NCBI GenBank assembly: GCA_046290225.1
Contig: JBKAGE010000082.1
Coordinates: 1 to 64,000 of the forward strand
Direction: 5' to 3'
DNA length: 64,000 nt
DNA from: Bradymonadia bacterium
Lineage (GTDB): Bacteria > Myxococcota_A > Bradymonadia > UBA7976 > UBA1532
The notes beneath the pieces are model-generated. The model made no database searches and was not told where the DNA came from. It was given only the letters and a program-made list of their open reading frames with translations. The translations under genes were made by a program, and so were the position numbers. Below are positions 21,659-55,330 of the stretch, one piece after another. Within the stretch, counting starts at the first letter, position 1; each line of letters begins with the position of its first letter.

Positions 21659-22843
21659 ATGTTTGGTTTTAAGCAACGTAACAACACCGAGCTCTTCGAC
21701 GAAGGTCCGGCCCAGGGTGCTCAGGATGATGGCTTTCAGCGCATGCTGGACGCCGCATCGTTCGGCGCCATTCGCTTCAACGCCAGCAGCGGCAGCGTCG
21801 AGTACGCCAACTCCGCAGCCAGCCAGCTGACCGGGCAGAGCACCTACGGGTCCAGCTTTGCCAGCATCTTCAGCGACAGTGGGGCCAGCGCCGCCTTCAA
21901 GTCGGCCAGCCAGTTGCCCTACAGCGGCACCACCCAGTTCAATGGCAAGAGCTTCCAGTTCACCCTCGATGCTGTCCCTGGCCCGCAGGGACCGTACACA
22001 TGGTGTTTTGCCAGCTTCTACCCAGCGCAGGCGTCCACACAGACGGGCAGCAGCTCCGGCTCGAATGCCCAGGCCAAATCCCAAGCCCAGGACATCGCCA
22101 GCTCTGCCCAGGACCTGCAATCGGCCATCTCGTCGATCAGCACCCAGAGTCAGCAGACCGTCCAGGAGCTGCACGCCTCTGTGGAAGAGGTACGCCACGC
22201 CACGGAGAACGTGGAGATGGTGGCCGCAGCGTCGGACGAACTCTCCAGCTCCATCAGCGAGATCAGCCGGCAGGTGGCCGAGTCTTCCCGCATGGCCCAG
22301 GAGGCCGTGAGCGAGGCTCAGCGCACCAACAACATCGTCGAGAGCCTCGCTGAAGCCAGCGACAAGATCGGTGAGGTGGTGAACCTGATCCAGGACATCG
22401 CCGAGAAGACCAACCTGCTGGCGCTCAACGCCACCATCGAGGCAGCCCGTGCGGGTGACGCCGGCAAGGGCTTCGCTGTGGTGGCCGACGAGGTGAAGAA
22501 CCTCGCCAGTCAGACCGCCAAGGCCACCGAGGACATCGCCCGCCAGATCAACTCGATCCAGGGCTCCACCGGCCTCGCAGTTCAGGCCATCAGCAGCATC
22601 GGCGAGACCATCGAGCGTCTGTCTGAGATCTCCACGGGCATCGCCGCTGCAGTGGAAGAGCAGGGCGCAGCCACCCACGAGATCGCCCGCAACGTGCAAG
22701 AGGCCTCGCGCAACACCCAGGGTGTGGCTGACCGCCTGCAGGGGCTGGCCCATCGCGCCGGTGACAATGGCATCGACCGGTTCGAGTCCACCACTCAGGC
22801 ACTTCAGCAAAAGGCTGCGGCTCTGGGCAGCGCCTTCGCATGA
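21659..22843 (+). CDS. Soluble methyl-accepting chemotaxis protein with PAS-like N-terminus
   Basis: [37 protein letters not shown] signalling hairpin; [11 protein letters not shown]-like start; no transmembrane helix. Confidence 0.92.
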
Positions 22844-22999
22844 TGTCCTATCGCTGAGGATCCCAAGCCTCGGCGGCATCAGGCCCCTTCTACTCGACCC
22901 TCACCTACTTGTTCTTACCTTGCCTCTCACATCATGAGGGGTATGCATCGTCACACATGTGCGCTACTCTCCTCTCATTCTATGTGACTGGAGACACCC

Positions 23000-25900
23000 A
23001 TGCCGACGATGCGTCGACGCTTGCTCGCCTCTCTGGGCTTTGCCTCTCTCGCTTCCGCATTCTGGATCAGCGAAGCCTCTGCCGGCCACGGCTACCACCA
23101 CTGTGCCATTCTCGACACAGGCGATGTGAAGTGCTGGGGCTACAACAACTACGGCAACCTCGGCCTCGGTGACACCAACCTGCGCGGTGACAGCGTCGCG
23201 GAGATGGGCGACAACCTGCCCACCGTCGATCTATCCGGTCGCGACATCGTTCAGCTCATTGGTGGTGGTCACAGCGTCTGTGCTCTGTCGACTGCTGGTG
23301 AGGTGCTGTGTTGGGGCTACAACGCCCACGGCAACCTCGGTGAAGGCAACACCAGTCATCGCGGCAACTCGGCCAACGAGATGGGCAACAACATCTCCCC
23401 TGTGGACTTTGGGAGTGCTGGTGCTGCTGTAGAGATCGGCGGCGGTCTGTATCACACCTGTGCGCGATTCTCGAACAACCGCATCAAGTGCTGGGGTCGC
23501 AACAGCCATGGGCAGCTCGGACTCGGCGATACCAACAATCGCGGTGATGCTGCCAACGAGATGGGCAACAACCTCCCCTATGTCGATCTCGGCACTGACG
23601 ACAACGGAGATCCGCTGCAGGTGGCTGAAGTCACTGGCGGCTACTATCACACCTGTGCACGCTTCGATAACGGACGGGTAAAGTGTTGGGGCCTCAACAA
23701 CAATGGCCAGCTCGGGCTTGGCAACACAGCATACCGAGGTGATGGCCCCAACGAGATGGGCAATAACCTTCCCTATGTCGATCTCGGCACTGACGGCAAC
23801 GGAGATCCACTCCGAGTGACAGATCTCGACGCAGGGCACTATTCCACCTGCGCCACCTTCGAGAACAACCAAGTCAAGTGCTGGGGCTACGGTGCCAACG
23901 GCGCCCTGGGTTATGGCAACACCAACAGCCGTGGCGATAACGGCGGTGAAATGGGCAACAGCCTGCCCTTCGTCGATCTCGGCACCGGGCGCTCGGTAAA
24001 AGCCATCGCAGTGCAGATCTATTCGGTGTGTGCGATTCTGGACAACGATCGGGTGAAGTGCTGGGGCTACAATGGCCACGGCAACCTGGGCCAGGGCAAC
24101 ACCACCACCCGCGGTGACAACGGCGGTGAGATGGGTGACAACCTCGCCTACACCGAGCTCGGTGATGGTGTGACCCCCGTGGACATCAGCTCTGCCTATT
24201 ACTCCACCTGCATCCTGACCGACGACGCTCGGGTGAAGTGCTGGGGCCACAACAGTGGCAGTCGCCTCGGCTATACACAATACGGCACCCATGTGGGTGA
24301 CGGCGCCAACGAGATGGGCAACAACCTCGCCTATGTTCCCTTGGGCAACGTCACCATCACCGAGCTCTCGAACAACGCTCTCTCAGGCTGTGGGGACGAT
24401 GACGGTGACGGCATCTGTGATGTCGACGACAACTGCCCCTTCGCGGCAAATGCCGGGCAGGCAGACACTGATGGCGACGGTGCAGGCGATGCCTGTGATG
24501 CCTGCGCGAACGACGCGACGAACGATGCAGACGGCGATGGCATCTGCCAGGACGTCGATAACTGCATCACGGTGGCCAATGCGGACCAGACCGACAACAA
24601 CGGTGACGGCTTCGGTGACGCTTGTGTGAGCGTGAACGCCGACATCGACCCCACCGCTACCCTCGGCAACGACCTCGTCATCGGCGAGAACGCTGTGATT
24701 GGTGCCTTCGCCCGCGTGGACGACGGCGCAACTGTCATGGGCACCCTCGGCAGCAGCGTCGGTATCGGCGCCGGCTCAGTCGTGGGTGCAGGGGCCAACC
24801 TCGCGAACGGTGTCAGCGTCGGCGAGAACGTCGGCATTGGCGCCAACACCACGATTGGTGTCATCGCTCGCATCGGTGATGGGGCCAGCATCGGCGCCAA
24901 CGTCACCATCGGTACCCAGGGCGACATTGGTGCTGGTGCGGTCATCCCTGACGGTGTGCAAATCGGCGAGATCTCCGGGGTGGGTGCCAACACTCAGCTC
25001 GGCGCTGGCTGTGTCCTCGGGAACAACGCCCGGTTCGGCGCCAATGGTGCCACGGGCACGGACTGCACCCTCGAGTCGAACACCCGTGTCGGTGACGACT
25101 TTGTATTCGGTGACACTGTCTATGTGGAATCCAATGCCACCATCGAGCCTGAGGCCGACTTCGGCAACGGCGTCCGCATCGGCGATTACGCTGTCGTGGG
25201 TCGCAATGCCCACCTCGGTGCTGGTACTACGCTGGCTTCTGGCGCCGAGCTCGGTGAGAACGCCGCCGTGGGCACGGATTCCGAGATTCGCGGTGCCCTG
25301 GGCAACGGCGTGACCTTGGGCGCTGACTGTTTCGTCGGTAACCAGAGCAGCCTCGCCGATAACTGCACCTTCGGAGATCGCGTCACCACCGGCATCTTCG
25401 TCACCCTTGGTGCCCGCTGCGATGTGGGTGATGACTCTGCCATCTACGACGGGGTCACCCTCGGCGTCGATGGTGCCATTGGCGCCCGCAGCACGGTGCT
25501 CTTCCGGGCCACCATCGGTGACGACGCCACCATTGGCACCGACACCATCATCGACGAGCAGGTCGAGACCGGCCATCGGTTCACACTGGGCAACAACAGC
25601 CGCCTGTGGCCCCGCTCCGGCTTCGGCAACGACGTCAGCATCGGCGCCAACGTACTCATTCGTGACACTGCTGACGTAGGCGATGATGTGACCATCGAAG
25701 ATGACGTCACCATCTACCCCGAGACCACCATTGGCAGGGAAACCATCATCCGCCAGGGCGTAGAGCTCGGCGTAGCCATTTGCGCCACTCAGCGTTGTGG
25801 CCAGGTCACCGTCGGTGAGTGTGCCGACGTTAATGCTGACATGAGCCCTCTGAGCGACATGCCTGGCAGCTGTGCCGATGGTACCGAGCCTGGCCGCGCG

Positions 25901-26545
25901 GGGCTGAGCTGCGCTGACCTGCTCGCTGAAGGCGTGACCGTCGATGGCGCTTACTGGATCGACCCTGACGGCGATGGCCCTGTGGAGGCGGTGCAAACGT
26001 GGTGTGATCAAACCACGGATGGTGGTGGCTGGACACTCGTGAGCAAGTACAGTGGCAGCACCAACGGCAACGTCTACTCAGACAATGCTGAATTCAACAT
26101 CGCAGCACTGACGCAAACCGCCGCAAATGCCAATGCCAAGGTGACCAACGACTTCATCTATGCCCTCGTGGATGATCGAGCCGGGGCCACCTTCCGCGGT
26201 GTATCGTCACTCTATGACACGGTCATCCAGCGCACTGACGGGGTGAATGTGTTTGATGTGACGGGCGCTGCTGGCGCAACTTATCAGTGTAAGCAGACCA
26301 CAGCAGCAAACTGGGTTCAGTACACGATGATCAATGGCTGCAACAACGGCGCTCACTACCCCGTCGTTCGGGTGAGCACCTGGACTCAGGGTTGCGACTA
26401 CGTCGGCTACAATCAGGCTCAGAAGCCCTGTGGTGACGGCTTGCACTTCTCCTCGGGCTCCTCCGCCAACCACAGCCAGCGCTCCGGTATCGACGCGGGC
26501 TATACCTCAAGTGCAGCCCGTCCCGGTGTCTGGTACGTCCGCTGA
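23000..26545 (+). CDS. Giant secreted protein: RCC1 repeats + thrombospondin type-3 repeats + long hexapeptide (LbH) repeat + divergent fibrinogen-like C-terminal domain (paralog 1)
   Basis: Repeated (V/I)KCWGxNxxGxLG; DxDGDGxxDxxDNC; ~400 aa of (I/V/L)GxxxX hexads; YWIDPDG...[14 protein letters not shown]...VWYVR. Confidence 0.9.
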
Positions 26546-26590
26546 GGCTTCAGCGCGGCTTTCCCCAATGCCGCCCTCACCTCACACGAT

Positions 26591-27592
26591 TCAACGTGCC
26601 CGCCCCGCCTCGAGCAACCAACGCCCCAGTTGAGCGCTGAACACCTCCGCCCCATGTGGGGTGACGTGGCCATAGTCATAGAAGTCGGTGGGCATCAGGC
26701 CGAAAGCGCTGGCCCGAGGCTCGAGGTGGCCGTCGATGCTCAGTGATGCCAGGGCCTCGCGATACTCGCCCCAGGCCTGCGGCCGATGCTGCTCTACCCA
26801 GTCCACATAGCGATCTCGCAAGGGCGCCTCGAAGATCAGCAACTGAACACCATCTTCTTCAGTCATGCGCTTGAGGGTCTGCACATGCTCGATGGCGAGG
26901 GTGTTGAGCTGCCAGTGCTTGAGGTAACGGCGACCCGAGGCCGCCACATCGAAGGTCTCGGGCCCCTTGGGGCCTTTGCTCTTGCGGACGATGCGCCCAT
27001 CAGAGGCCAGCTTCACATCGTGGTTCTGGGTCTGATGCAGTGAAGAGAGCATTCGACGGAGCGGGCGCCGGATGTCATAGGTCTTCCACACCCACCCAGC
27101 GATCAGTTTGGGCTGATGAATCATGGCGTGGCCCTGGAGGCGCTCGCTCAAACCATATGCCCGCATCGCCCTGTCCAGCGGTGGGTAGCCAGCGTTGAGC
27201 TGCCAGTCATCCAGGCCCAGGAGCAGCACCTCGGCGCCAGACAGGCGCCCTCGATGGCGGGTGTACATGGCCAGGGCGTCTCGGGGCGTGCCCTGAGCGA
27301 GGGCGACGTTCATCACCGCGCCTGCTGGCAGCCCCATGGCCTGAGCGACGACGTCGGGCGCCACGGCGTCACGGGGCCTGCTCGACCCCATCACCAGCAC
27401 TTTGGGGGTCGGGCGCTGAGCGATCACCTGCCGCTCCACGGCCTCCATCACCCCGACATATGTCTTGTTGTTCCAGGACCACACCCACCCGGGCCGGGCC
27501 ACGGCCAGCTCGACGACGAGCAAGATGGCCGCCGCAAGGCAGAACCCCTTGGGAAGCGGGAAGCTGCCTTGAAGGGTGCGCTGTCTGCTCAT
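26591..27592 (-). CDS. SGNH-like acyltransferase partner (DltD/AlgJ-like), paralog B
   Basis: One N-terminal TM helix; LVMGSSR and FYDYGH motifs; directly downstream of paralog A and the MBOAT gene. Confidence 0.75.
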   Translation of the reverse strand: MSRQRTLQGSFPLPKGFCLAAAILLVVELAVARPGWVWSWNNKTYVGVMEAVERQVIAQRPTPKVLVMGSSRPRDAVAPDVVAQAMGLPAGAVMNVALAQGTPRDALAMYTRHRGRLSGAEVLLLGLDDWQLNAGYPPLDRAMRAYGLSERLQGHAMIHQPKLIAGWVWKTYDIRRPLRRMLSSLHQTQNHDVKLASDGRIVRKSKGPKGPETFDVAASGRRYLKHWQLNTLAIEHVQTLKRMTEEDGVQLLIFEAPLRDRYVDWVEQHRPQAWGEYREALASLSIDGHLEPRASAFGLMPTDFYDYGHVTPHGAEVFSAQLGRWLLEAGRAR

Positions 27593-27624
27593 GGTTCCCC
27601 TGCCCACCGTAGATCGCTCAGGCG

Positions 27625-28641
27625 TCAGCGGACGCCCTGTGCCTTGAGCCACTCTCCCAGGCGCCGCGTGATGATCGTCGCCCCGGCAGGCGTGCAGTGC
27701 CCATAGTCGTAGAACAGCTCCTCTTCGAGGCCGAAGTCGCTGCCCCGCTCGCCGAACAACATCTCGATGCCCAGATCTTTGATGGCATCGCGATACTGAT
27801 TGATGCGCTTGGCATGCTCTGCCTCGACATAGTCGATGTATGCATTGCGCAAGGGCGGCTGGAACAGCATCAGGCGGGATCCATCGGCCTTGACCATCTC
27901 TTCGAGGTCTTTGATCGCCTCGAGTTCGAGGGTCTTGAACTTCCAGTGACCCATGTAGCGATCGGCCACTCGGGCGACGTTGATCTTGGAAGGCCCTCGG
28001 TCGCCGGTCTCTTCACGCCACACGACACGACCATCGTCAGAGACCTTGATGTCGCGCTGGCGCCCTCGCGTCACGTATTGCGCGAGCCGCTTCACCGAGC
28101 GCCTGGCGTCATAGGTCCGCCAGGCCCATCCGGCGATGAGGCTCGGATAATGATCCGAGGTGAAGCCTTCGAGGCGCTCGCTGAGCGTGTAGTTGCGCCG
28201 TTGGCGATCGGTGGGCGGGTAGCCGGCGTTGACGTACCAGTCCTCGAGACCCAGGACCACCACCGAAGCCTTGGCGAACTTCTCGCGATGGCGGGTGTAG
28301 AGCAACAGCGCATCCTTGGGCGTACCCTGAGACAAGGCGACGTTGAGGACGTCTCCCTGTTGCAGGCCCAACGTGGACTCGAGATCGCGAGGGGCGACCC
28401 CGTCGCGGATCCGACTCGATCCCATCACCAGCACCTTTGGCGGTTGGGCGGGTGTGATCACCTGTCGATCCATGGCGGCGACGATCCCTGCTGGTGTGTG
28501 ACCACTCCAATCCCAGAGCCAGTCCTGTCGCGCAGCGCCGAACTCCACGATCAGCAGAATCACAGCGGCGAGCAACGCACCCTTGGGCACGGGAAACGCG
28601 CCGGAGAGTGTACCTTTCGATGTTTTCTCGTCAGCCATCAC
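27625..28641 (-). CDS. SGNH-like acyltransferase partner (DltD/AlgJ-like), paralog A
   Basis: One N-terminal TM helix; LVMGSSR, NVALSQGTP and FYDYGH motifs. Confidence 0.78.
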   Translation of the reverse strand: MMADEKTSKGTLSGAFPVPKGALLAAVILLIVEFGAARQDWLWDWSGHTPAGIVAAMDRQVITPAQPPKVLVMGSSRIRDGVAPRDLESTLGLQQGDVLNVALSQGTPKDALLLYTRHREKFAKASVVVLGLEDWYVNAGYPPTDRQRRNYTLSERLEGFTSDHYPSLIAGWAWRTYDARRSVKRLAQYVTRGRQRDIKVSDDGRVVWREETGDRGPSKINVARVADRYMGHWKFKTLELEAIKDLEEMVKADGSRLMLFQPPLRNAYIDYVEAEHAKRINQYRDAIKDLGIEMLFGERGSDFGLEEELFYDYGHCTPAGATIITRRLGEWLKAQGVR

Positions 28642-28648
28642 TCACCTT

Positions 28649-30073
28649 CTAGAACTGGAAGTAGATGAAGGGCACTTCCTGCTCACTGTGGAAGGCGACC
28701 ATGTAAAGAATCATGCCGGTGTAGACGATGCCACGGATCGCCCAGTGCCATTTCAACATGGCATTCTGATCCCCCGTGCGATGCTGGGGGATGTCGATGA
28801 ACAAGACACATGCGATGAGATAGAGCGGCTGCTTGAAGAAGCTCAATGACAGATCGCTCAAATCGAAAGCCGCGATGCCCGAAAGCACTGCTGCTGACTG
28901 CTCGAAGGTCTGCGCTCGGAAAAACACCCAGGCAAAACCCACCACCAGCATGGTGACCAGCCAGCCCATCACGGCCTTGCTGGCGTCGCCCACCGTGGCA
29001 AAGCTCGCCTTTGCAGGGGGCTTCTCCCCTCTCAACCAGAGCTTGTGAAGCGCCAGGGCCAGGCCGTGGATCCCGCCCCACACCACGAAGTTCCACGAGG
29101 CCCCGTGCCAGAGGCCGCCGAGCAGCATGGTGAGCATCAAGTTGCGGTACACGAACCATTGAGGCCCGCGGTTGCCACCGAGAGAGATGTACAGATAGTC
29201 CCGAAGCCATGATGACAGCGAGATGTGCCATCGGCGCCAGAAGACAGTGATGTTCGTCGAGAAGTAAGGGTGCCTGAAGTTCTCCATCAACTCGACACCG
29301 AGCATGCGGGACAAGCCGCGGGCGATGGAGGAGTAGCCCGAGAAGTCACCATAGATCTGCAGGGCGAACATGAGCACGCCCAGGAGCAGGGGGATGGTGG
29401 TCATGTCGGCGGCGTTGGCGAAGGCTTGGTTGGCTCGATCGGCGGCGATGTCGGCGATCATGATCTTGCGGAACAGGCCGATGAGCACCAGCTGAGCACC
29501 GGAATAGAGCTGCTCGGCGGTCACCGTGCGGGGCTGGGAGATCTGGGGCATCAAGTTTTGAGCCCGCTCGATGGGCCCTGCCACCAGCTGAGGGAAGAAA
29601 GCCACGTAGATGGCGAAGTCGAGGGGATCCCGGACAGCCTTCATCCGGCCCCGATAGACATCGATGCTGTAGGCGAGGGTCTGGAACGTATAAAAGCTGA
29701 TGCCTACAGGGAGCACGATCTCCAAGGTGACCGCGTCGACTTCGACCCCGAAAGCCGCCATGGCCCCTACGAGGCTGTCGGCAAAGAAATTGAAATATTT
29801 GAAGAACCCCAGGATGCCCAGGTTGGTGCCGAGGCTGATCCAGAGCAGACGTTTTCGCCGGGTTTGCTCATCGGTGGCCTCGATGGCCTTGCCCACGGCG
29901 AAGTCCACCGCCGTCGATACCCAGAGCAAGCCCAGGAACCGCCAGTCCCAAGCGCCGTAGAACACATACGATCCGATGAGGATCAGCCAGTTCTGCCCGC
30001 GGTGGGGCAGACGGTAGTACAGCCCGTAGACGATGATGCAGAAGGCCAGGAATGTCCACGAATTGAATGTCAC
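28649..30073 (-). CDS. MBOAT family O-acyltransferase (AlgI/PatA/DltB-like)
   Basis: LPVGISFYTFQ, FFPQLVAGPIER, FWRRWHISLSSWLRDYLYI, GLWHGA and C-terminal PFIYFQF. Confidence 0.95.
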   Translation of the reverse strand: MTFNSWTFLAFCIIVYGLYYRLPHRGQNWLILIGSYVFYGAWDWRFLGLLWVSTAVDFAVGKAIEATDEQTRRKRLLWISLGTNLGILGFFKYFNFFADSLVGAMAAFGVEVDAVTLEIVLPVGISFYTFQTLAYSIDVYRGRMKAVRDPLDFAIYVAFFPQLVAGPIERAQNLMPQISQPRTVTAEQLYSGAQLVLIGLFRKIMIADIAADRANQAFANAADMTTIPLLLGVLMFALQIYGDFSGYSSIARGLSRMLGVELMENFRHPYFSTNITVFWRRWHISLSSWLRDYLYISLGGNRGPQWFVYRNLMLTMLLGGLWHGASWNFVVWGGIHGLALALHKLWLRGEKPPAKASFATVGDASKAVMGWLVTMLVVGFAWVFFRAQTFEQSAAVLSGIAAFDLSDLSLSFFKQPLYLIACVLFIDIPQHRTGDQNAMLKWHWAIRGIVYTGMILYMVAFHSEQEVPFIYFQF

Positions 30074-30357
30074 CGTTTTCCCTCAAATGTCGCGTGGCTA
30101 CACGCTCCCCCAGCAGCCTGCGAAAGGCAATAAAACGCCCTTCATCGGGTCAGGCCCACCTGCGTCTCCAGCGACGGGCATGGTACTTGACGCTTTCAAG
30201 GCGCTCGACTGGCTACTGCTCTTGCCACCCGCATCTTACAGCTTCCACCCGATCTGGCAGATCGATCAGCCATCCATGCCTTTTTCAGGCAGGACTGCTC
30301 GACATTGTTCTAAGCGTTTTTGAACACTTAGCCAGAGACCGACACAAAAATGACACT

Positions 30358-30375
30358 TTGGCATGCGAATCGCTT
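30358..30375 (+). promoter_or_regulatory. Putative sigma54 (-24/-12) promoter of lipoprotein copy 1
   Basis: TTGGCATGCGAATCGCTT has GG-N10-GC spacing, lies ~60 bp before the ATG, and is identical in front of copy 2. Confidence 0.65.
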
Positions 30376-30434
30376 AATACATGGGCATTCCCAATTGGCA
30401 CCCAACATCTACTCCAAATGAGGGGAGTGGCAGC

Positions 30435-33089
30435 ATGAAGATTCGGACTTTCGGTCGCGTTATCAGCCTGGGCCTCGGCCTGACGAGCCTCGCAGCATGC
30501 GGTGGCACCGAGACCACTGACACCAACACCGGCGCCGAGGGTGGGGAGACCCCTGTCGCCGAGAGTGGCCGGACCGATGCCTGCCCCACTGGCAAGTGCG
30601 ACAGCCCCAACGCTTCGGAGACCTTCGAGCACAAGTGGGCCGTCGACATGAAGAAGGTCAACGAGCACTACGGCCGCACCACCAAGTACTTCTTTGGTAT
30701 GACCCCTCAGGAGTCTGGGATTGACCCCAATCTGATCATCCCCGGCCTCACCCAGGCGATCGCCGCACAGATGGTCGCCGCTGGCATGCCCGAAGATGCC
30801 GCCGCCCAGGCTGCCGCTCAGCAGGCCACCGCCATGGCCAACCAGCCCATCTGGGACCAGATGGCTTCCCGCAACTCCGACCACAGCCTCCACGTGGATG
30901 CTGATGGTGAGAACGGTGTCGACAAGAACGTGCAGGTCATCCTCGAGGACGGCACGCAGATCGACCCCCCCGGGTACGTGAACATCATCCCGATGTACCG
31001 GGACACCGACCCCACCAAGCAGAACCAGATCCGCAAGTACATGAAGAACGGCGACGTCATTGTGTACTTCCACCCCGAGTTCACCGAGACCAAGGATCAC
31101 ATGGAGCGTCGCGCGAGCCACATCGCGATGCACTACGACATCACTGATCCTGTGACTGGTCAGGAGATGGTGCACCACATCGACAACCCGAATGGGTATG
31201 GCCCGATGTACAACCACCGTCCCACCAAGCACATGCCCTTCCACATCTACCGCTTCCAGCCCCGCGCCGATAAGGTCTTCGGTGTGGCCCCTGCTGGTCA
31301 GAACATCGCCGCGGAGATCGAGGGTGTCGGCTTTACCCGTGGCCAGGAGGACGCTGTCCTCGGTCTGGTGAACCCCGAGGTGAACCTCGATGACACCAAG
31401 GAGCGCCTCAAGTTCCAGATCAAGCTCGACGTCGAGCTCTCCCTGGACTACCGCGCCGCCGAGAACATCATCACCTACCTGCGCAACACCGGTCGCATCG
31501 ACAGCCTCAAGACCCTCGGCGGCATCCCCTACGTGGACGGCGAGGCCCTCACCCTGCTCCGCGACGGTGTGGATGCCGAGGAAGAGAACGGCTTCACGAT
31601 CGACGCGACGATGGCGGACATGTACAGCCAGCACGCTGCTGACTGGGCCTTCATCACGAACGATCTCAGCCCCTTCGCTGACTTCTTCACGCTGACTCTC
31701 CAGAACAAGACGCAGATCGACGACTTCGCGGTGCCCGCCATCAACGGTGAGGACATGCCCCGCCTGTACTGCTCGGGTCTGGCCTACGCCAACCTCAACC
31801 TGGCCCTCAACCGCCCGCTCAACAGCATCGGCCTCGGCGAGGAGCTCTGGGAGACCTTCAAGAGCTCCAACTACTACCTCAGCGACATCAACAAGGAGTT
31901 CGCTGCTGAGTGGGTTGCTGATCAGAACAACCTGCCGGGCATCGACCGCATGGTCTTTGAGAGCTACGCCGCCACCGACATCGTCAACAACTGGATCAAC
32001 ACCAACCTCGGCCACCTGCCCGTGCCGATTCGTCAGGCCCTCCTGGCGACGCCCGAGCTTCAGCAGCAGATGGTCCGCGGCTTCTCCCAGCTCGAGTGGT
32101 CCGACTCCCACGCCGAGGAGAAGTCCCAGACTCGCCAGTTCGACCCCGCCTCCGAGGCCAACGTCGCTCGCTGGGCCAAGGCCTACGGCCTCGGCGCTGA
32201 CGCCACCCAGGCCTACCTCGAGTCCGACGAGGAGCTGTTCAACGCTTTCCGCGGCCTGGACATCCCCCTCGCTGGCCTGACCCCCATGGATGTGCTCCAG
32301 GCTGTGGAGCGCGCCACGGTGTCGAACCGGTTCGTGCCGCCCCGCATCTGGATGGACGTCGCCGACCGCGCCGACAGCAACATGGTGTACGTGGGTACTG
32401 TTCTCAACTGTGAGCTGCTCAGCGCTGCTGACGGCTCCGACATCGACGCCTGCGCCGGTGGCGGTGGCGGTGTCGAGGAGTTCGCTGAGGGCGCCGCTGA
32501 CACCAGCACCTACGCCCACTACGCCATCACCAACGGTGGCCAGCGTACCCACCGTCGCTTCGACGGCACCCCTGGCCCCAAGAACATGGGCTACAACACC
32601 ACCTTCACCGTGGGCTTCACCGCTGCTGACGTGGAAGACATCGTCTTCATGGTGCACACCCCCGAGATGTGGGCCGACAACGACACTGTTGGCATGTCCA
32701 TGTACGAGTACGACACCTACTGCACCGAGAAGAACCCCGAGGGCAGCTGCGCGCCCAACACCGGCATCTTCCTCGATCCCATGGCTCTCCTCGAGTTCGG
32801 CGCCGGCGCCATCGAGGACCAGCGCCTGACCTTCGAGCTCTTCGGCGACAACGGTGTCTGCCAGCCTGCTGGTGAGGACATCATGGATTGCCCCACCGTC
32901 ACCGTGAAGGAAGACGGCAGCCTCGAGTACGGCGACACCATCCTCACCCGCAACGCGCACGGCCTCTTCGCCGTCACCATGCTCGACGTCAAGGCCCGGG
33001 ACGAGGGCGTGGAGTTCGAGCTGTGCACCGAGTGCGCCAACGGCGGCGCTCACTTCGACGGCTGGCGCCTCAAGATCCGCAACGACTGA
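30435..33089 (+). CDS. Large lipoprotein with putative permuted papain-like (NlpC/P60, YiiX/YaeF-type) domain and inserted helix-hairpin-helix module (copy 1)
   Basis: LAAC lipobox; GKCD motif; KNGDVIVYFH..SHIAMHY precedes LYCSGLAY; LDVELSLDYRAAENII...IPYVDGEAL HhH-like segment. Confidence 0.75.
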   Translation: MKIRTFGRVISLGLGLTSLAACGGTETTDTNTGAEGGETPVAESGRTDACPTGKCDSPNASETFEHKWAVDMKKVNEHYGRTTKYFFGMTPQESGIDPNLIIPGLTQAIAAQMVAAGMPEDAAAQAAAQQATAMANQPIWDQMASRNSDHSLHVDADGENGVDKNVQVILEDGTQIDPPGYVNIIPMYRDTDPTKQNQIRKYMKNGDVIVYFHPEFTETKDHMERRASHIAMHYDITDPVTGQEMVHHIDNPNGYGPMYNHRPTKHMPFHIYRFQPRADKVFGVAPAGQNIAAEIEGVGFTRGQEDAVLGLVNPEVNLDDTKERLKFQIKLDVELSLDYRAAENIITYLRNTGRIDSLKTLGGIPYVDGEALTLLRDGVDAEEENGFTIDATMADMYSQHAADWAFITNDLSPFADFFTLTLQNKTQIDDFAVPAINGEDMPRLYCSGLAYANLNLALNRPLNSIGLGEELWETFKSSNYYLSDINKEFAAEWVADQNNLPGIDRMVFESYAATDIVNNWINTNLGHLPVPIRQALLATPELQQQMVRGFSQLEWSDSHAEEKSQTRQFDPASEANVARWAKAYGLGADATQAYLESDEELFNAFRGLDIPLAGLTPMDVLQAVERATVSNRFVPPRIWMDVADRADSNMVYVGTVLNCELLSAADGSDIDACAGGGGGVEEFAEGAADTSTYAHYAITNGGQRTHRRFDGTPGPKNMGYNTTFTVGFTAADVEDIVFMVHTPEMWADNDTVGMSMYEYDTYCTEKNPEGSCAPNTGIFLDPMALLEFGAGAIEDQRLTFELFGDNGVCQPAGEDIMDCPTVTVKEDGSLEYGDTILTRNAHGLFAVTMLDVKARDEGVEFELCTECANGGAHFDGWRLKIRND

Positions 33090-33262
33090 GGCTCCGCTGC
33101 TCCGGCGGCGTCAGCCGCCGTGAGCGCGGCGATCTTGCGCACAGCTACGACCTTTCCTTCCTCGACGCAGCTCTGCTGCGCCTGCGGGTGAAAGCCCGCA
33201 TCTGCACACAAGCTCCCCACCCTCACGACGACTGCCGCCACCTCCGCATCTCCGCGGGGCTC
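33090..33262 (+). other. Structured 3' element downstream of lipoprotein copy 1
   Basis: Hairpins CGGCGGC-GTCA-GCCGCCG, CGCAGC-TCT-GCTGCG (33166-33180) and TGCGGGT-GAAA-GCCCGCA (33183-33200). Confidence 0.55.
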
Positions 33263-33477
33263 GTGCGCGACGCTTCTATGGCTTCGTCTCTAGGGTTGTA
33301 TGAGAGAGACAGGCTCTGAGTTTTCGATCGGATACTCTACTTGCCACTTGGGGTGGGGTAGCTTGCTCGATCTGGCAGTTCGATCAGCCACCCATAGAGG
33401 GCTACGGATGTGGGCGACATCTGATAACGCCATAATTTCCGTCCACTTACTGTCAGTCTTCTGTGCTGGGGTTCCCA

Positions 33478-33495
33478 TTGGCATGCGAATCGCTT
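33478..33495 (+). promoter_or_regulatory. Putative sigma54 (-24/-12) promoter of lipoprotein copy 2
   Basis: Identical TTGGCATGCGAATCGCTT; the sequence upstream of it is unrelated to that of copy 1. Confidence 0.65.
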
Positions 33496-33554
33496 AATAG
33501 GTAAGCATTCCAAATTGGCACCCAACATCTACTCCAAATGAGGGGAGTGGCAGC

Positions 33555-36200: not shown

Positions 36201-36375
36201 GGCTCCGCTGCTCCGGCTCTGTGGCCCGCCACCTGAGTGGCGATTTGGCGCACGGAGCCGGCGCTTCCCTCCTCGACGATGCTTCCAGCATCGCCTGCGG
36301 GTGAATCACCACCCCCGCACACCAACTCCCCCCTCAGTTGACGACCCCCAGAGCCTCCGCACCTCCGCGGGGCAC
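36201..36375 (+). other. Structured 3' element downstream of lipoprotein copy 2
   Basis: CCGGCTCTGTG/CACGGAGCCGG stem, CGATGCT-TCC-AGCATCG (36277-36293) and TGCGGG...CCCGCA (36296-36319). Confidence 0.55.
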
Positions 36376-36625
36376 GGGTCTGCACTTGTTCTGATTTGAG
36401 GTTGTCTCACTCGCACTGATGGCATGGCTCCTCAGGTGTCTGTAACCGGGCAGCAGAGCCTGGCTGCAGACCACCCATGAGGCCGTCGACCCAAACACCT
36501 TCATTCCATTCCTCGCCAAAATATGTAGTCATAGGTGGTCTGTGAACACAGTCCACCGGTTTGGGTAGGCTTCAAGCCCACCCCCACACGATGTCTTTTG
36601 TCCAGACACGTGCAGTGAGGAAGCC

Positions 36626-39600
36626 ATGAACGTGAAGAAGATGATGCTCTCTGGCGCTTTGGGGGCAGGCGCCTTGCTCTGTGCTGCGGGTGCCTACGCC
36701 ACCAGCAACCACCACATGTGTGCCATCAGCGATGCTGGCGCTGTCGTATGTTGGGGCAACAACAGCAACGGGCAGCTCGGTCAGGGCCACACCAACCACA
36801 TAGGTGACGTCGCTGGCGAGACCAGCCTGCTCCAGCCGATCGATCTCGGCACTGGGCGCACTGCGCTGCAAGTTGTTCAGGCCAGCGCCCACACCTGCGC
36901 GTTGCTCGACGATGGCTCCGTGAAATGCTGGGGCAGCAACAGCGGTGGGCGCCTGGGCATTGGCACCTCGGTGGGCCCTGTCGGGGATGCTGCGGGCGAA
37001 ATGGGTGACAATCTGCCCACCGTGAACCTCGGCACCGGCCGCACGGCCACCTTCCTCACCGTGGGGAGCGCCCACACCTGCGCGGTCCTCGACAATGGGC
37101 GCGTGAAGTGTTGGGGCTCGAGCAGCCGCGGGCAGCTCGGATACGAGATCACCTCGGGTCGCGGCAGCGTGCCTGAGCACATGGGCGACAACCTGCCCTA
37201 TGTCGACCTTGGCACCAACGCACAGGGACAGCCACACACCGCCACCCGCCTCGGCAGCGGTGATGAGCACACCTGCGCAGTCCTCGAAGATGGTCAGGTG
37301 AAGTGTTGGGGCTACAACAGCACCGGCCAACTCGGCCACGGCGACACCACTCAGCGTGGAGATCACGCCAACGAGATGGGCGACAACCTGCCATACACCG
37401 ATCTCGGTAATGGCGTGGTGGCGGTCGCACTCACCGCAGGGCAGCGCCACAGCTGCGCATTGCTCGACGACGGCGGGGTGAAGTGCTGGGGCTACAACAG
37501 CAATGGTGAGCTCGGGCAGGAAGACAACGTTCAACGCGGTGATGGCCCCAACGAGATGGGGGACAACTTGTCACCCATCGACCTCGGCACAGGGGTCACC
37601 GCTGTTCGGGTGGTCAGCGGTGATCATCACAACTGCGCCCTGACGAACACGGGCGGCACCAAGTGTTGGGGTTGGGGCCACTATGGCCAGACCGGCACTG
37701 GCACCTGGGGCACAGGCGACGGCGTCAACGAGATGGGAGACAACCTGTCCTACATCTCTCTGGGTGGTGGCAGCCTCCAGAGCATCGGCTCTGGCCTGCA
37801 CACCACCTGTGTGATCTTCACCGGTGGCGGCCTCAAGTGCTGGGGTTACAGCACATCGGGTGTGCTGGGCATCGGCGCGGCCAACGGTGATCATCGCGGT
37901 GACGGGATCAACGAGCTGGGTGCCAACCTGCCCTTCGTGTCGCTGCAGAACTTCACCCCCATGGTCATGGGCAACGACAACTTCGGGGTGGAGCTGTGTC
38001 CTGACGACGACGGTGACGGCATCTGCAACGACGCCGACAACTGCATCGCCGGCGCTGATGGTGATCTCGACAACGTATGTGACAACGTGGACAACTGCCC
38101 CACGGTGTCGAACCCGAACCAGACCGACGACAATGGTGATGGCTATGGCGACGCCTGTGTCAGCCCCCTCGCCGCTGCCTGCATCGACCCTACGGCTGTA
38201 CTCGGCGCCAACATCATCATCGGACCCAACGCCTGCATCGGCAGCTACGCCCGCATCGGCGACGATGCCACCATCATGGGCACAGTGGGCAACAGCGCCA
38301 ACATCGGCTCTGGGGTCACCATTGGCGAGGGTGCCACGGTGGGCAACGCCGTCGTGCTTGGTGACAACGTCGGCGTCGGCGCCGACGCCACTGTCGAGGT
38401 GCTCGCTCAGCTGGGCGCCAGCGTCAGCGTAGGCGAGCGTGGCTTCGTGGGCACTCAAGCCGTTGTGGGTGACAACAGCCAGCTCGCTGCGGACACCAGC
38501 GTGGGCCTGCTGGCGCGCCTCGGTGCAGGCAGCAATCTCGCCGCGGGCACCAGCGTCGGCAACAACTCCATCGTGGGCGCCAACGCCTCGCTGACCTCGG
38601 GCAGCAGCGTCGGCCCCAACGCCAGTATCGGTGATGATCTGCAGCTGGGCACCAACGCCATCATCGAAGACAACACGGTCATCGGTGACAACGCCGCCAT
38701 CGCCGAGAGCGGCATCGTGCGGAGCTACGTCACCATCGGCCACAACCTCGTCATGGGTACAGGCACCGAGCTGGCCTCCGGCGCCGCAGTCGGTGACAGC
38801 GCAGTGCTCGGCGCCAGCGTCGAGGTTCGGGGCAGCGTCGGTGCCCGCGCGCAGCTCGACGACAACGCCTTCGTGGGCAACCAGAGCGACGTGGGTGACG
38901 ACTGTCACCTGCACACCAACGTGACCTTGGGCCTCTTCGTCTCTCTCGGTGCCAACTGCGAGATCGGCGACGACAGCGCCATCTATGATGGGGTGCAAAT
39001 CGCCAGCGACGCCACCATCGGCGCCCGAGCCACGATCTTGTTCCGCACTGTTTTGGGGCAGCGCGCCACCATCGGCGACGACACCATCGTCGACGAGGCC
39101 ATCACCGCGGGCGATGACTTCACCGTGGGCACCAACAGCCGTCTGTGGCCCCGCTCGACGTACGGCAACAGCGTCAACATCGGCAACAACGTGCTGATTC
39201 GCGACACCGCGGACATCGGCGATGACGTCACCATCGAAGATGATGTGTTGATGTATCCCGAGACCACCATCGGGAGCGAGACCACCATCCGTCAGGGTGT
39301 GGAGCTCGGCGTAGAGGACTGCGCCAACCGCGTGTGCGGCCAGGTCACCATCGGCGGTTGCCAGGACGTCAACGCCGACATGGGCGCTGAAGCTCTGCTC
39401 GACGGCAGCTGCATCAACGGCCTCACCCCCGAGGGTGCAGCGCTCAACTGTCTGGAGGCGCTCAACTCTGGCGCAGATCAGGACGGCACCTACTGGCTCG
39501 ACCCCGACGGTGCAGGTGGCCTCGACGCGTTCCAGGCTTACTGCGACATGAGCACTGACGGTGGCGGCTGGACTCTGCTGGCGCTGAACAACCAGCCGAC

Positions 39601-40060
39601 GACGTTCACGAACTTCAACAAGACGTGGGCACAGTTCCGTGATGGCTTCGGCGACTACGCCACAGGTGGCCTCGGCTGGATCGGGAACGCACGGATTCAC
39701 GCGCTGACGAGTCAGGGGGTGACGACGCTGGAGGTGCGCAACGGAGGAAGTGTGCACGAGTACACGGACTTCAACGTGGGCGACGAGGCCTCAGAGTACC
39801 TCATGACCATCGGCAACAGCCCCAACAGCAACGATGGTGGCCGTCTGCTCAGTTACCACTCTGGCATGCGCTTCAGCACCTTCGACAACGACAATGATCT
39901 CTGGAGCAACAACTGCGCCTCTTACTACAGCAGCGGCTGGTGGTTCCGCAGCTGCTACTACATGAGCTTCGCTGGCTCCAACAACAGCCGCACCTACTGG
40001 CGCGTCGGCAACTCAAGCCTCGAGTACGTCAACGACAGCCTCGCCATGTGGATCCGCTGA
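36626..40060 (+). CDS. Giant secreted RCC1 + TSP3 + LbH + canonical fibrinogen-related (FReD) C-terminal domain protein (paralog 2)
   Basis: Same architecture as paralog 1. The tip YCDMSTDGGGWT..FNKTWAQFRDGFGD..WIGNARIHALT..YHSGMRFSTFDNDND..NCA..SGWWFRSCY is a textbook fibrinogen C-terminal domain. Confidence 0.92.
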   Translation: MNVKKMMLSGALGAGALLCAAGAYATSNHHMCAISDAGAVVCWGNNSNGQLGQGHTNHIGDVAGETSLLQPIDLGTGRTALQVVQASAHTCALLDDGSVKCWGSNSGGRLGIGTSVGPVGDAAGEMGDNLPTVNLGTGRTATFLTVGSAHTCAVLDNGRVKCWGSSSRGQLGYEITSGRGSVPEHMGDNLPYVDLGTNAQGQPHTATRLGSGDEHTCAVLEDGQVKCWGYNSTGQLGHGDTTQRGDHANEMGDNLPYTDLGNGVVAVALTAGQRHSCALLDDGGVKCWGYNSNGELGQEDNVQRGDGPNEMGDNLSPIDLGTGVTAVRVVSGDHHNCALTNTGGTKCWGWGHYGQTGTGTWGTGDGVNEMGDNLSYISLGGGSLQSIGSGLHTTCVIFTGGGLKCWGYSTSGVLGIGAANGDHRGDGINELGANLPFVSLQNFTPMVMGNDNFGVELCPDDDGDGICNDADNCIAGADGDLDNVCDNVDNCPTVSNPNQTDDNGDGYGDACVSPLAAACIDPTAVLGANIIIGPNACIGSYARIGDDATIMGTVGNSANIGSGVTIGEGATVGNAVVLGDNVGVGADATVEVLAQLGASVSVGERGFVGTQAVVGDNSQLAADTSVGLLARLGAGSNLAAGTSVGNNSIVGANASLTSGSSVGPNASIGDDLQLGTNAIIEDNTVIGDNAAIAESGIVRSYVTIGHNLVMGTGTELASGAAVGDSAVLGASVEVRGSVGARAQLDDNAFVGNQSDVGDDCHLHTNVTLGLFVSLGANCEIGDDSAIYDGVQIASDATIGARATILFRTVLGQRATIGDDTIVDEAITAGDDFTVGTNSRLWPRSTYGNSVNIGNNVLIRDTADIGDDVTIEDDVLMYPETTIGSETTIRQGVELGVEDCANRVCGQVTIGGCQDVNADMGAEALLDGSCINGLTPEGAALNCLEALNSGADQDGTYWLDPDGAGGLDAFQAYCDMSTDGGGWTLLALNNQPTTFTNFNKTWAQFRDGFGDYATGGLGWIGNARIHALTSQGVTTLEVRNGGSVHEYTDFNVGDEASEYLMTIGNSPNSNDGGRLLSYHSGMRFSTFDNDNDLWSNNCASYYSSGWWFRSCYYMSFAGSNNSRTYWRVGNSSLEYVNDSLAMWIR

Positions 40061-40243
40061 GCGCAAGTGCCGTCGTGACCTCATAACACTGCTGCACACC
40101 CGATCTGCCCAGCAGGCAGATCACCACTGCCTCCACCGCTTAATTCAACAACCGACCCGTCTCCATCTGAATTTTGTGTGGTTCACAGTGTGGGCAAGGG
40201 CGTACAATGTTGCGCATTGCACACACTGTCTGCCGATGGAGGC

Positions 40244-43200
40244 ATGATGACTCGACGCAACCTCATCCGACATTCGCTCTATCAGCTACTCGGCGCCAGT
40301 GCCCTCACCCTCGCTGGCACGTCTCTGGCCAACGCCAACCACGACTACCTCAGCTGTGCGCTCTTCGACGATGGCCAGGTGAAATGTTGGGGCTACAACA
40401 GCCACGGCAACCTTGGTCTGGGCGACAACAACCACCGTGGCGACTCTGGCGGAGAGATGGGCGCCAGCTTGCCTTATGTCTCTCTCGGTGAGCCTGCTGT
40501 GGAAGTGCACACTGGCTACATCAGCACCTGCGCCATCATGCAGAGTGGCCAAGTGAAATGCTGGGGCTACAATGCCCACGGCGAGCTCGGTCTGGGCGAC
40601 AACAACCACCGCGGCGACTCTGCCGGTGAGATGGGTGCCAGCCTCCCCTATGTAAACTTCGGTACTGGTGTAACAGTGCAACAGCTCGACATGGGCGTGC
40701 ACCATCAGTGCGCTGTCATGGACAACGGTGGGGTGAAGTGCTGGGGCTACAACAGCTACGGCAACCTCGGATATGGCGACACGCAACACCGGGGCGACAA
40801 CGCCAACGAGATGGGCGACAGCCTCCCCTATGTCAACCTCGGTACCAACGTCCAGGGGCAACCTCATACAGCCCAGATGGTGGCGGCGGGCTATCTCAAC
40901 TCGTGTGCAGTGCTCGAAGACGAGCGGGTGAAGTGTTGGGGCTACAACAACTACGGCCAACTCGGTCATGGCAACAACACCCAACGCGGTGATAACGCTG
41001 GCGAGATGGGTAACAACCTCGCGTATACCGATCTCGGCACCAACGCTCAGGGCCAACCGCACACGATCAAGGACATCGACGGAGGCATCTACCACTGGTG
41101 TGCACTGCTCGATAATGATCGGGTGAAATGCTGGGGCTACGGCAGCCAAGGCAACCTCGGGTACGGCAACAGCCATCACCGAGGCGACAACGCGAATGAG
41201 ATGGGTGACAACCTGCCCTATGTCGACCTCGGCACCGACGGTCAGGGCAACCCGTTGCTGGTCGACAAGCTCTATGTGGGCGCCTACCACACCTGTGCAT
41301 TGATGCAGGACACCTCGACGAAGTGTTGGGGGTACGAGCAGCTGGGATCCACTGGCACTGGGCAAAACCGAACCTACATCGGCGACGCTGCCAACGAGAT
41401 GGGCAACAACCTCATCCCTGTAGACTTCGGGCCAGGCCTCCACGCTGTGGAGATGGATCTGGGCCACTACTATGGGTGTGCCCTGCTCAACAACAGTGAG
41501 GTGAAGTGCTGGGGCTACGACATCTACGGCCAGCTCGGCCTGGGCACGAACGGCCAGCATCGTGGTGACAGCGCGGGTGAAATGGGGGCCAACCTGCCTT
41601 TTGTCGACCTCGGCAACGGCACCATCACGGCGCTCTCTGCGCCTGAGCCTTTCTCCATTGTCGATGACGATGGCGACAACATCGACGATGCCATCGACAA
41701 TTGCCCCCTTGTGGCCAACGCCGCTCAAACCGACACCGACGGAGACGGTTTGGGCGACGCCTGTGATGTATGTGCAAACGATGCGACGAACGACGCTGAT
41801 GGCGATGGCATCTGCCAGGACGTGGACAACTGCATCACCGTGGCCAACGCAGACCAGACGGACAACAACGGTGACGGCTATGGCGATGCTTGCGTGAGCG
41901 TGAACGCCGACATCGACCCCACCGCTACCCTCGGCAACGACCTCGTCATCGGCGAGAACGCTGTCATCGGCTCATTCGCCAATGTGGGCGACGGCGCCAC
42001 AGTGATGGGTGACCTTGGCAGCAGCGCCAGCGTAGGCGCAGGCTCTGTCGTGGCCGCGGGTGCCAGCCTCGCCAACGGCGTTCGTGTGGGTGACAACGTG
42101 GGCATCGGGGCTGGTACCAGCATTGGTGTCATCGCTCGCATCGGTGACGGGGCCAGCATCGGCGCCAACGTCACCATCGGTACTCAGGGTGAAATCGGCG
42201 CTGGTGCTGTCATCCCTGACGGCGTCCAGATTGGTGAGATTTCGGGTGTGGGTGACAACACTCAGCTCGGTGCTGGCTGTGTCCTCGGCAACAACGCCAA
42301 GATGGGCGCCAACGGCTCCACGGGGACCGACTGCACCCTCGAGTCGAACACTCGCGTGGGCGATGACTTCGTCTTTGGGAGCACGGTGCACATCGAGTCG
42401 AACTCCACCATCGAGCCCGAGGCCGACTTCGGCAACGGTGTCCGCATTGGTGACTACGCTGTCGTGGGCCGCAACGCTCACCTCGCAGCCGGCACCACCC
42501 TCGCATCTGGTGCGGAGTTGGGCGAAAACGCTTCAGTGGGTGCCGGCTCCGAGATTCGCGGTGCCCTGGGCAATGGCGTGACCCTGGGTGCGGACTGCTT
42601 CGTGGGCAACCAGAGCAGCCTCGCTGACAACTGCACCTTTGGCGACCGTGTCACCACGGGCATCTTCGTCTCCCTCGGCGCACGCTGTGACGTGGGTGAG
42701 GATTCAGCGATTTACGACGGTGTGACCCTCGGTGTGGACGGCAACATCGGTGCTCGCAGCACGGTGCTCTTCCGGGCGACGATTGGCGACAACGCCACCA
42801 TCGGGACCGACACCATCATCGACGAGCAGAACGACATCGGGAACGACTTCACCCTCGGCAACAACAGCCGCCTCTGGCCTCGCTCCGACTTCGAGAACGA
42901 GGTCACCATCGGCGCCAACGTCCTCATCCGCGACAGCAGCTACCTGCACGAGGGCGTCACCATCGAGGACGACGTCACCATCTTCCCCGAGACCACCATC
43001 GGGGCTGATGCCACCATCCGCCAGGGTGTAGAGCTCGGCGTGGCCATCTGTGAGACCCAAGTCTGTGGTCAGGTCACCATCGGTGAGTGCTCCGACGTCA
43101 ACGCCGACATGGACGCTGGCAGCAACATGCCCGGTGATTGTGTCATCGACATCGTGGTGAACGGTGCCAGCCGCAACTGGGAAGACGGCACCTACGCCAC

Positions 43201-43798
43201 CGCCTGCCACGACTACATCAACCCCGCCAATGGTTACGCATACAGCGGCGCCACCGGTGATGGCCGCTACACCATCGATCCTGATGGCGACGGCGGCAAC
43301 GCGCCCTTCGACGTGTACTGCGACATGACCACCAACGGCGGTGGCTGGACCCTCGTGGACAACGACGCCACCAATGGTGCGATCTTCCAGAGCCGGACCC
43401 TTGGCGCCAACCCCGACATCAACGTCACCCGCGGTGCCTTGTTCCCAGTCTATGACTGGTCCGACAGCCCCCAGTTGCTGTGCAAGTCCAGCACTTACAC
43501 CGGCACGCTCCCCTGGCGTACGTTCCACGTGTACGGCAATGGCTTGAACTACCCCTACCAGACCTCCATCGGTGGATTCGGCGCCGGCGGGTACTTCGGC
43601 TACGCTGTTGACAACGGCAACGGCCAGGCCGGCACCGGCAGCTGGCTCCACAACACTCAAAGCCGTTTCGGCTCTGTCTGGATCGGCTCTGGCGGCAACT
43701 CGAGCTGCTCGTGCAACTACTACGCGCCCAGCCCCTCCTCTGGTCTGGGCACCTACGCGGCCTCCAGCAGCAACACCTGCAGCACCTGGATCCGCTGA
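40244..43798 (+). CDS. Giant secreted RCC1 + TSP3 + LbH + divergent fibrinogen-like C-terminal domain protein (paralog 3)
   Basis: GGAGG RBS then MMTRRNLI; stalk near-identical to paralog 1; [14 protein letters not shown]...TWIR tip. Confidence 0.9.
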
Positions 43799-55169: not shown

Positions 55170-55330
55170 CGGCATCTCGTATCGGTGCGAGTTGAAGGGT
55201 GCGTGCACCCCGTTCACCGATCTTCAATACCATCAGTGGCGCGCTCTTTATATGTTCACTGACAGGTAGGTGTTTGTATTCGGAACAGGATCAGCCCTCG
55301 ACGCAACCTGCGGAGGGCCGATCTTGAGGC

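Follow-up and report, generated by a model that had tools for sequence, protein, structure and literature searches.

The closest described bacterial counterpart of the system reported here is the MAT fiber family of Bdellovibrio. According to the main text of PMC10769870, in which the word "fibrinogen" does not occur, this family comprises 21 signal-peptide proteins of ~1000 amino acids (aa), which share an invariant N-terminal domain of ~130 aa, assemble into phage-like intertwined trimeric fibers of up to ~550 Å and often carry an S74 chaperone. Single domains also recall other proteins: animal ficolins, FIBCD1 (a tetramer, in the available text of PMC3908420), and other fibrinogen-related domains; the bacterial motif family NF040941 (GGGWT_bact); and hexapeptide proteins such as LpxA, LpxD, GlmU, γ-carbonic anhydrase, and eIF2B epsilon. 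Here, we describe three paralogous genes in a stretch of 64,000 nucleotides (nt) from a Bradymonadia bacterium (assembly GCA_046290225.1, contig JBKAGE010000082.1, positions 1 to 64,000; hereafter, the window), together with the family to which they belong in the source genome (G000; 8.58 Mb in 83 contigs). We propose, with a probability of roughly 0.55, that this family is a genome-wide repertoire of exported, double-ended adhesins or lectins built on a trimeric β-helix rod of fixed length.

The initial annotation had described three secreted paralogs with RCC1 repeats, TSP3 repeats, hexapeptide repeats, and a C-terminal tip, and three open reading frames (ORFs) of the corresponding size are indeed present on the + strand (Table 1); signal peptides were called by eye. 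The RCC1-like Pfam profile WD40_RLD scored 176, 172, and 199 bits in paralogs 1, 2, and 3 against a cut-off of 150, and the E values for Hexapep were 7e-48, 3e-40, and 7e-44. The proposed order of RCC1, hexapeptide repeats, and tip was found in all three proteins. TSP3 was confirmed by Pfam in paralogs 1 and 3 but not in paralog 2, whose linker is shorter and has no TSP_3 match. All three tips exceeded the NF040941 cut-off of 30 bits (63, 64, and 61), so the anchor [WY]CD..T.GGGWTL noted previously is genuine and already catalogued, and each protein ends in W-x-x-R or W-x-R. As had been suggested, only paralog 2 has a canonical fibrinogen domain: Fibrinogen_C covers profile positions 4-187 of 221 there (E 2e-35) and only positions 4-55 and 10-48 in paralogs 1 and 3. 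Past the GGGW motif the tips could not be aligned, again as claimed; no significant pairwise BLASTP match was obtained among the three (best E 5.0, 4.1, and 0.055).

Across the source genome, 48 ORFs matched the C-terminal half of the rod at E ≤ 1e-8. A complete rod was present in 34 of them, with a length of 415 aa in 33 and 417 aa in one; the other 14 were three contig-end fragments, 10 ORFs with divergent rods, and one 358-aa ORF of unrelated appearance. Nine rod-family members lie in a single array (C35:168000-200300). An alignment of the 34 complete rods has 417 columns and contains a single insertion, of two residues in paralog 2, even though identity to paralog 1 is as low as 38%. By contrast with the rod, both ends vary. 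The N-terminal part consists of one RCC1 propeller in 20 members, many propellers in two, a GGGW module in seven, and other domains in four, including two legume-lectin domains (E 6e-53 in one member) and PKD/Ig domains; one member has none. No C-terminal tip is present in six members, and 160-465 residues follow the rod in 28. These 28 tips fall into 21 classes at E 1e-20. On a corrected count, 24 tips are of the GGGW/fibrinogen type and four are not; the script had given 22 and six, and two had fibrinogen/COLFI matches. C-terminal ends also include LamG/ConA (E 1e-7) and a sub-cut-off F5/8 match. RCC1 had been regarded as the base of the molecule, a view that does not hold because 12 of the 34 members lack RCC1 and six stop at the rod. 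What remains constant is the TSP3 linker, the rod, and a Cys cap, with RCC1 as one optional head among several. Three giant members of 3537-5203 aa (L012:968-11578 on contig C77, L020 on C44, and L022 on C36) contain 40-75 RCC1-type repeats, or about 6-11 propellers, with the rod last. Two further proteins, L034 (4572 aa) and L035 (2072 aa), have MopE-type repeats that lead into a GGGW tip, so that these tips are found on a third scaffold as well.

The fold of the rod was assessed by AlphaFold2 modeling of paralog 3. Continuous short strands at six-residue spacing were predicted from residue ~557 to 930, with a predicted local distance difference test (pLDDT) score of mostly 80-92 over ~580-900, in line with the long continuous β-helix stalk that had been proposed, and PF00132 matched far above its cut-off. 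The head was predicted to be a seven-bladed propeller, for which UVR8 and RCC1 were the best Foldseek matches. All 60 of the listed solved-structure matches to the rod profile were hexapeptide proteins (LpxD, LpxA, GlmU, γ-carbonic anhydrase, and eIF2B epsilon), which suggests that the rod is left-handed; the best of those listed span at most ~230 of the 415 profile positions. Since a β-helix rises 4.8 Å per coil, the ~21 modeled coils would give a length of about 10 nm. A long fiber, as initially envisaged, is not supported by this length, compared with ~55 nm for the MAT protein Bd3182 in the main text of PMC10769870. The rod has the 18-residue repeat period of the hexapeptide proteins but differs from them in being about twice as long, secreted, Cys-capped, devoid of a conserved His, and probably a scaffold.

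Hexapeptide acyltransferases and γ-carbonic anhydrases have a conserved catalytic or metal-binding His. It is scarcely credible that the rod itself works outside the cell as an acyltransferase or carbonic anhydrase-like enzyme and that its end modules target it, although its listed structural relatives are mostly enzymes and an MBOAT gene is located between paralogs 1 and 2. No His column reached 30% among 43 rods, and we rejected the enzyme reading on this ground. Moreover, the three window proteins reached no transferase equivalog cut-off, acyl-CoA is not expected outside the cell, and the MBOAT neighborhood was not repeated at other members.

Across the same 43 rods, the cap has four almost invariant cysteines, and the residues other than Gly that are conserved occupy a single slot of the hexapeptide at intervals of 18 positions, so that they line up along one corner. 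This stripe consists of N133, N151, N169, Y187, NQS238-240, F257, YD273-274, FR292-293, DE309-310, WP327-328, RD345-346, and P364, and its polar and aromatic residues grow larger toward the C-terminus. Trimeric enzymes of the hexapeptide fold turn one edge to the three-fold axis, and a trimer is for this reason the simplest reading of the stripe; binding of a shared partner would fit it equally well. A trimer prediction with three copies of rod residues 634-966 of paralog 3 returned no answer (score 0.00) and weighs neither way. If a partner is bound, the rod may be a monomeric docking or sorting module whose stripe contacts a surface protein, pilus, secretion channel, or polysaccharide common to all members, whose length acts as a ruler, and whose end modules carry out recognition. 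We consider this possible but tentative. Six of the 34 members end at the Cys cap, including ORFs of 3537 and 5203 aa with many propellers, and many distant secreted-looking proteins have a C-terminal hexapeptide domain after unrelated passengers, as is the case for sorting or anchoring domains. The stripe exposes aromatic and charged residues, and the neighbor and MYXO-CTERM searches described below revealed no other anchor. However, a C-terminal sorting signal seldom tolerates 160-465 extra residues such as those of the 28 tipped members, no partner gene recurs among 104 flanking ORFs, and most of the solved relatives (LpxA, LpxD, and GlmU) are trimers.

The tips were compared with animal fibrinogen-related domains. 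Canonical tips are nearest to animal FIBCD1, tenascin, and ficolin, and that of paralog 2 is closest to FIBCD1 (E 1e-31). In the numbering used in the available text of PMC3908420, it retains Asp393 and Asp395 (Ca ligands), the Cys401-Cys414 pair, and Tyr405, while Tyr431 and Trp443 of the S1 pocket fall beyond the aligned stretch. The position of His415 is occupied by Tyr or Trp in all four complete canonical tips (Tyr, Tyr, Trp, and Trp; Tyr in paralog 2), and acetyl binding of the ficolin type, to which the initial annotation had alluded, is therefore not implied. In the full-length model of paralog 3, the tip was unfolded because the alignment mixes tip classes, and tip 3 was modeled separately. 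A search with tip 3 returned 20 proteins, 16 of which are outside the rod family and have varied architectures. From an 18-row alignment, the best of five models had a pLDDT of 81 and a predicted template modeling score of 0.83 (pLDDT of the other four, 71-44). This model matched fibrinogen-related structures over 165-179 residues, through the last strand. The top match had a Z score of 9.5 and a root mean square deviation (rmsd) of 3.7 with 165 residues aligned; the first seven rows were all fibrinogen-family or intelectin structures (Z 9.5-7.3, rmsd 3.7-4.7), and the next row had a Z of 3.4. Foldseek agreed weakly (best E 2e-4). Because tip 3 cannot be aligned to tip 2 and is nevertheless predicted to adopt the fibrinogen fold, the model suggests that unalignable tips can share this fold with different bodies. 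Whereas NF040941 covers only 46 residues, the predicted fold extends over the whole ~200-residue domain to the final W-x-R. For tip 1, a search among longer proteins returned only tip 1 itself, which is weak evidence. The best phmmer match of tip 1 among 63 tip segments had an E value of 0.007, and in the Atlas it was placed near fibrinogen/COLFI clusters with a low recognition score.

Like ficolins and FIBCD1, the window proteins would present a C-terminal fibrinogen fold on a stalk (paralog 2 by sequence and paralog 3 by model). They differ from these proteins, as far as the available text of PMC3908420 describes them, in the absence of a collagen stalk, in the Tyr or Trp at position 415, and in that most tips share only the fold; no collagen Gly-X-Y repeat was present in the three sequences or their Pfam scans. 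The ficolin resemblance is confined to the tip fold. The similarity to animal proteins raises the question of whether the members are released effectors or decoys that imitate RCC1 and immune proteins of the fibrinogen type and are directed against eukaryotes, either grazers or hosts. We regard this as very unlikely. Heads are modeled as RCC1/UVR8 propellers, canonical tips have the animal affinities given above, and an RGD tripeptide recurs in the blades; but the Cys-paired blades and TSP3 suit an extracellular rather than a cytosolic site, 29 of 40 related genomes contain GGGW modules, which also appear in mostly-phage Atlas clusters, and no toxic domain was detected in the members scanned.

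We also analyzed how heads, rods, and tips are combined. A homolog search yielded 38 proteins, 12 of them from outside sources. Ten of these 12 have a complete rod, which is 415 aa in all 10; a further outside homolog (P0040) consists of RCC1 and rod and is tipless. For eight of the 10, a G000 tip class was matched at 59-79% identity, against 42-56% identity for the paired rods. The C-terminal tip of a ninth (P0024) matches G000 N-terminal heads at 66-67%, and P0033 has no match. Rods grouped by source in a quick tree (2 label changes vs 9.3 when shuffled), whereas tips paired across sources. These results agree with the prediction that homologs would combine a constant stalk with differing tips. 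The tips had been called polymorphic; they are exchangeable on a conserved rod, but they are not fast-evolving, as tip classes are better conserved between organisms than rods are. Mosaicism is equally evident within the genome. Paralogs 1 and 3 have rods that are 86% identical, heads that are 51% identical, and unrelated tips; conversely, tip identity is 60% and rod identity 38% between the members at C35:174358 and C81:69934. On both flanks of a 669-nt tract that paralog 3 shares with another member (Table 1), similarity falls off, with ~50-80% DNA identity in the head and an unrelated tip. The tract reads as recent recombination or gene conversion inside the rod. Given the close similarity of rods within the genome, crossover in the rod may bring old conserved heads and tips into new pairings. 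A second crossover point may lie in the GGGW motif (43307-43370 in the window, and equivalent sites), where stretches of 32-70 nt show 86-100% DNA identity between tips that are otherwise unrelated. A diversity-generating retroelement was rejected as the source of variation: the only non-family matches of the 28 tips were 37-41 nt of the GGGW motif, with no template repeat, and both reverse transcriptase matches are on contig C79, which has no family member.

Paralog 1 and its eight closest rods show 85-91% aa identity with about 45% of four-fold sites changed, and rods are thus under purifying selection. Strong selection of this kind, strict conservation of length down to 38% identity, and a common upstream motif suggestive of co-expression could all be explained by a lattice or matrix fiber outside the cell that bears mixed modules and in which rods are packed laterally or end to end, with uniform length keeping the register. 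Such packing seems quite unlikely to us, since bulky modules at both ends would block end-to-end stacking, and the strong acidity of the rods (51-55 D+E vs 14-18 K+R) disfavors sheets unless they are bridged by cations.

Compared with the MAT proteins as presented in the main text of PMC10769870, this is likewise a multigene family in which a conserved part carries swapped, independently folding C-terminal tips of several adhesive folds, here 21 tip classes on one rod. The invariant part, however, is a central hexapeptide rod of ~10 nm, both ends vary, and the tips are mostly of the fibrinogen type. The β-rich N-terminal domain of ~130 aa was not found among the N-termini of the 34 complete members (RCC1, 22; GGGW, 7; other, 4; none, 1). 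Neither S74 (Pfam) nor a tail-fiber PHROG matched the three window proteins, and the modeled stalk is a single-chain hexapeptide helix. The family thus appears to work like the MAT family on a different scaffold, without the N-terminal domain or the fiber type of MATs. The initial annotation knew of no described system with this architecture, and we found no account of it in the literature searched, which mostly excluded subscription papers.

Taken together, we favor a repertoire of double-ended adhesins or lectins that operates as follows. Each protein would consist of a signal peptide, an optional N-terminal module, a Ca-binding TSP3 hinge, the rod, and an optional C-terminal module usually of the fibrinogen fold. 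It would be exported by Sec and then by type II secretion. The rod, a non-enzymatic left-handed β-helix of ~10 nm with fixed length and a disulfide cap, would be the common assembly part of the family. The corner ladder would most simply form the three-fold axis of a trimer, presenting both end modules in threes for avidity, and crossovers within near-identical rods would re-pair old conserved heads and tips. The end modules would bind glycans or surfaces; that they include the lectin-type folds legume lectin, LamG/ConA, and fibrinogen counts in favor of recognition. A type II secretin in G000 scored over the cut-off, and MYXO-CTERM had 20 matches in the genome, which is consistent with a myxobacterium-like organism.

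Several observations weigh against this proposal. No anchor was seen, as none of the 20 MYXO-CTERM matches is at a family member and TIGR03901 was not among the families listed for the three window proteins. No neighbor gene recurs among the 104 flanking ORFs (3 BLAST pairs). The trimeric state is deduced from the stripe and from relatives, and left-handed helices that are not homotrimeric exist (eIF2B epsilon, dynactin p25/p27, and insect antifreeze protein). The acetyl-pocket His is not retained in the canonical tips. No relative of tip 1 was found, and its link to fibrinogen consists of the 46-aa motif and the low-score Atlas lead. Finally, with 83 contigs and several members at contig ends, some head-tip pairings could be assembly joins, which could arise across near-identical tracts and mimic such pairings.

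The distribution of the rod is narrow. Its C-terminal half was not found in 40 relatives, 25 of which are ≥90% complete, and the rod profile gave one partial match across 112 other genomes of the class (at most 16 candidates scored per genome). A scan of genome contigs with a pattern from the rod alignment gave 14 matches, none of which was confirmed. In the relative G006, 53 GGGW matches were found, and those examined sit on a scaffold with phage tail-fiber matches; one internal G006 module is common to a G000 head at 58-63%. At L074, L075, and L077 (G006), L078 (G008), and L079 (G023), proteins with GGGW tips and a scaffold other than the rod occur in arrays. The G006-type scaffold has a conserved N-terminal domain plus tail-fiber-like repeats, and its N-terminal part had no Pfam, NCBIfam, or PDB match. 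It may resemble MATs, and these proteins may be the true MAT-like family of the group. The N-terminal domain of this scaffold is also carried by eight G000 ORFs (C53:38319, C77:126590, C39:78577, and five more), at least three of which have collagen-like Gly-Pro-X repeats after it. Many proteins of secreted appearance were listed in a wider profile search; their hexapeptide domain is shorter and either ends the protein or precedes a GGGW tip. The rod family may thus represent a single branch of a broad, as yet unnamed class. In the unrelated proteins P0045, P0047, P0058, P0073, P0077, P0104, P0113, and others, the hexapeptide domain is terminal and has a similar Pro-Asp-rich tail; this C-terminal domain is possibly an unnamed assembly or sorting domain.

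The features of the three genes are listed in Table 1. The bipartite upstream motif had 13 matches in the genome, 12 of which precede family genes (shuffled expectation, 2.7), the pattern having been derived from these genes; it may be inherited rather than regulatory. A sigma-70 promoter scan of positions 22500-42000 gave 4 sites vs 3.3 expected. Between paralogs 1 and 2, a possible O-acylation cluster occupies 26591-30073 (− strand), with the MBOAT gene followed by two paralogous ORFs that lack family matches and are AlgJ/SGNH-like by eye. Tandem lipoprotein-like paralogs of ~890 aa, 85% identical and without a Pfam or NCBIfam match, lie at 30381-33089 and 33555-36200 (+ strand). A 2128-aa TSP3/DUF11/OmpA protein is encoded at 48834-55217 (− strand); its likeness to TraB and CglD is below the cut-offs.

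Table 1. Positions of the three paralogous genes and their parts in the window
Feature	Position	Strand	Remarks
Paralog 1 gene, 1181 aa	23000..26545	+	Signal peptide, RCC1 propeller, TSP3 linker, 415-aa rod, GGGW tip
Paralog 1 RCC1-like head, seven repeats	23090..24364 (ends approximate)	+	WD40_RLD 176 bits, 7 CWG repeats
Paralog 1 TSP3 linker	24392..24628 (start approximate)	+	TSP_3 E 1.6e-7
Paralog 1 rod, 415 aa of hexapeptide repeats, four-Cys cap at end	24629..25873	+	
Paralog 1 tip, 223 aa	25874..26542	+	NF040941 motif, then orphan body
Paralog 2 gene, 1144 aa	36626..40060	+	RCC1 head, short TSP3-like linker, 417-aa rod, canonical fibrinogen tip
Paralog 2 rod, 417 aa	38162..39412	+	2-residue insertion, the only one among 34 aligned rods
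Paralog 2 tip, fibrinogen domain	39413..40057	+	Ca ligands and Cys pair retained; acetyl-pocket His replaced by Tyr
Bipartite promoter-like motif GTGTRG-N19-22-TACA(A/C)T	40176..40208	+	5' of paralog 3
Paralog 3 gene, 1184 aa from ATG	40244..43798	+	ORF finder start is GTG at 40178
Paralog 3 RCC1-like seven-bladed propeller (predicted)	40340..41638 (ends approximate)	+	pLDDT ~90-97; Foldseek UVR8/RCC1 E 7e-22
669-nt tract	41849..42517	+	98.8% identical to paralog at G000:C35:182220
Paralog 3 rod, 415 aa, ~21 coils	41897..43141	+	
Paralog 3 tip, 218 aa	43142..43795	+	Predicted divergent fibrinogen-superfamily fold; mobile module, also on unrelated proteins

The weight of these findings is limited because the range is narrow (the source genome and about a dozen metagenomic proteins) and function is only deduced. 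Within that range, a fold known mainly from cytoplasmic enzymes appears to serve again as a secreted scaffold whose length is strictly fixed, which would be a second, independent solution to the problem addressed by MAT fibers, that of placing many binding specificities on one carrier. Modular carriers of the MAT kind were already known; what appears to be new is a repertoire of modular adhesins or lectins with variable modules at both ends of a β-helix of fixed length. The tips may constitute a collection of some 20 bacterial variants of the fibrinogen fold, of which at least one escapes sequence search beyond 46 residues. The collection bears on the origin of animal fibrinogen and intelectin lectins, and its ~200-aa domains could be screened directly. 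Identical rod length and a shared corner ladder make it conceivable, though rather unlikely, that different paralogs co-assemble into mixed trimers, as fibrinogen and collagen chains do, with ~40 co-regulated genes giving thousands of double-ended combinations. If this is true, mixed trimers would constitute a combinatorial ficolin-like bacterial recognition repertoire, renewed by recombination in the rod. For the organism, the family is probably a toolkit for sticking to varied surfaces.

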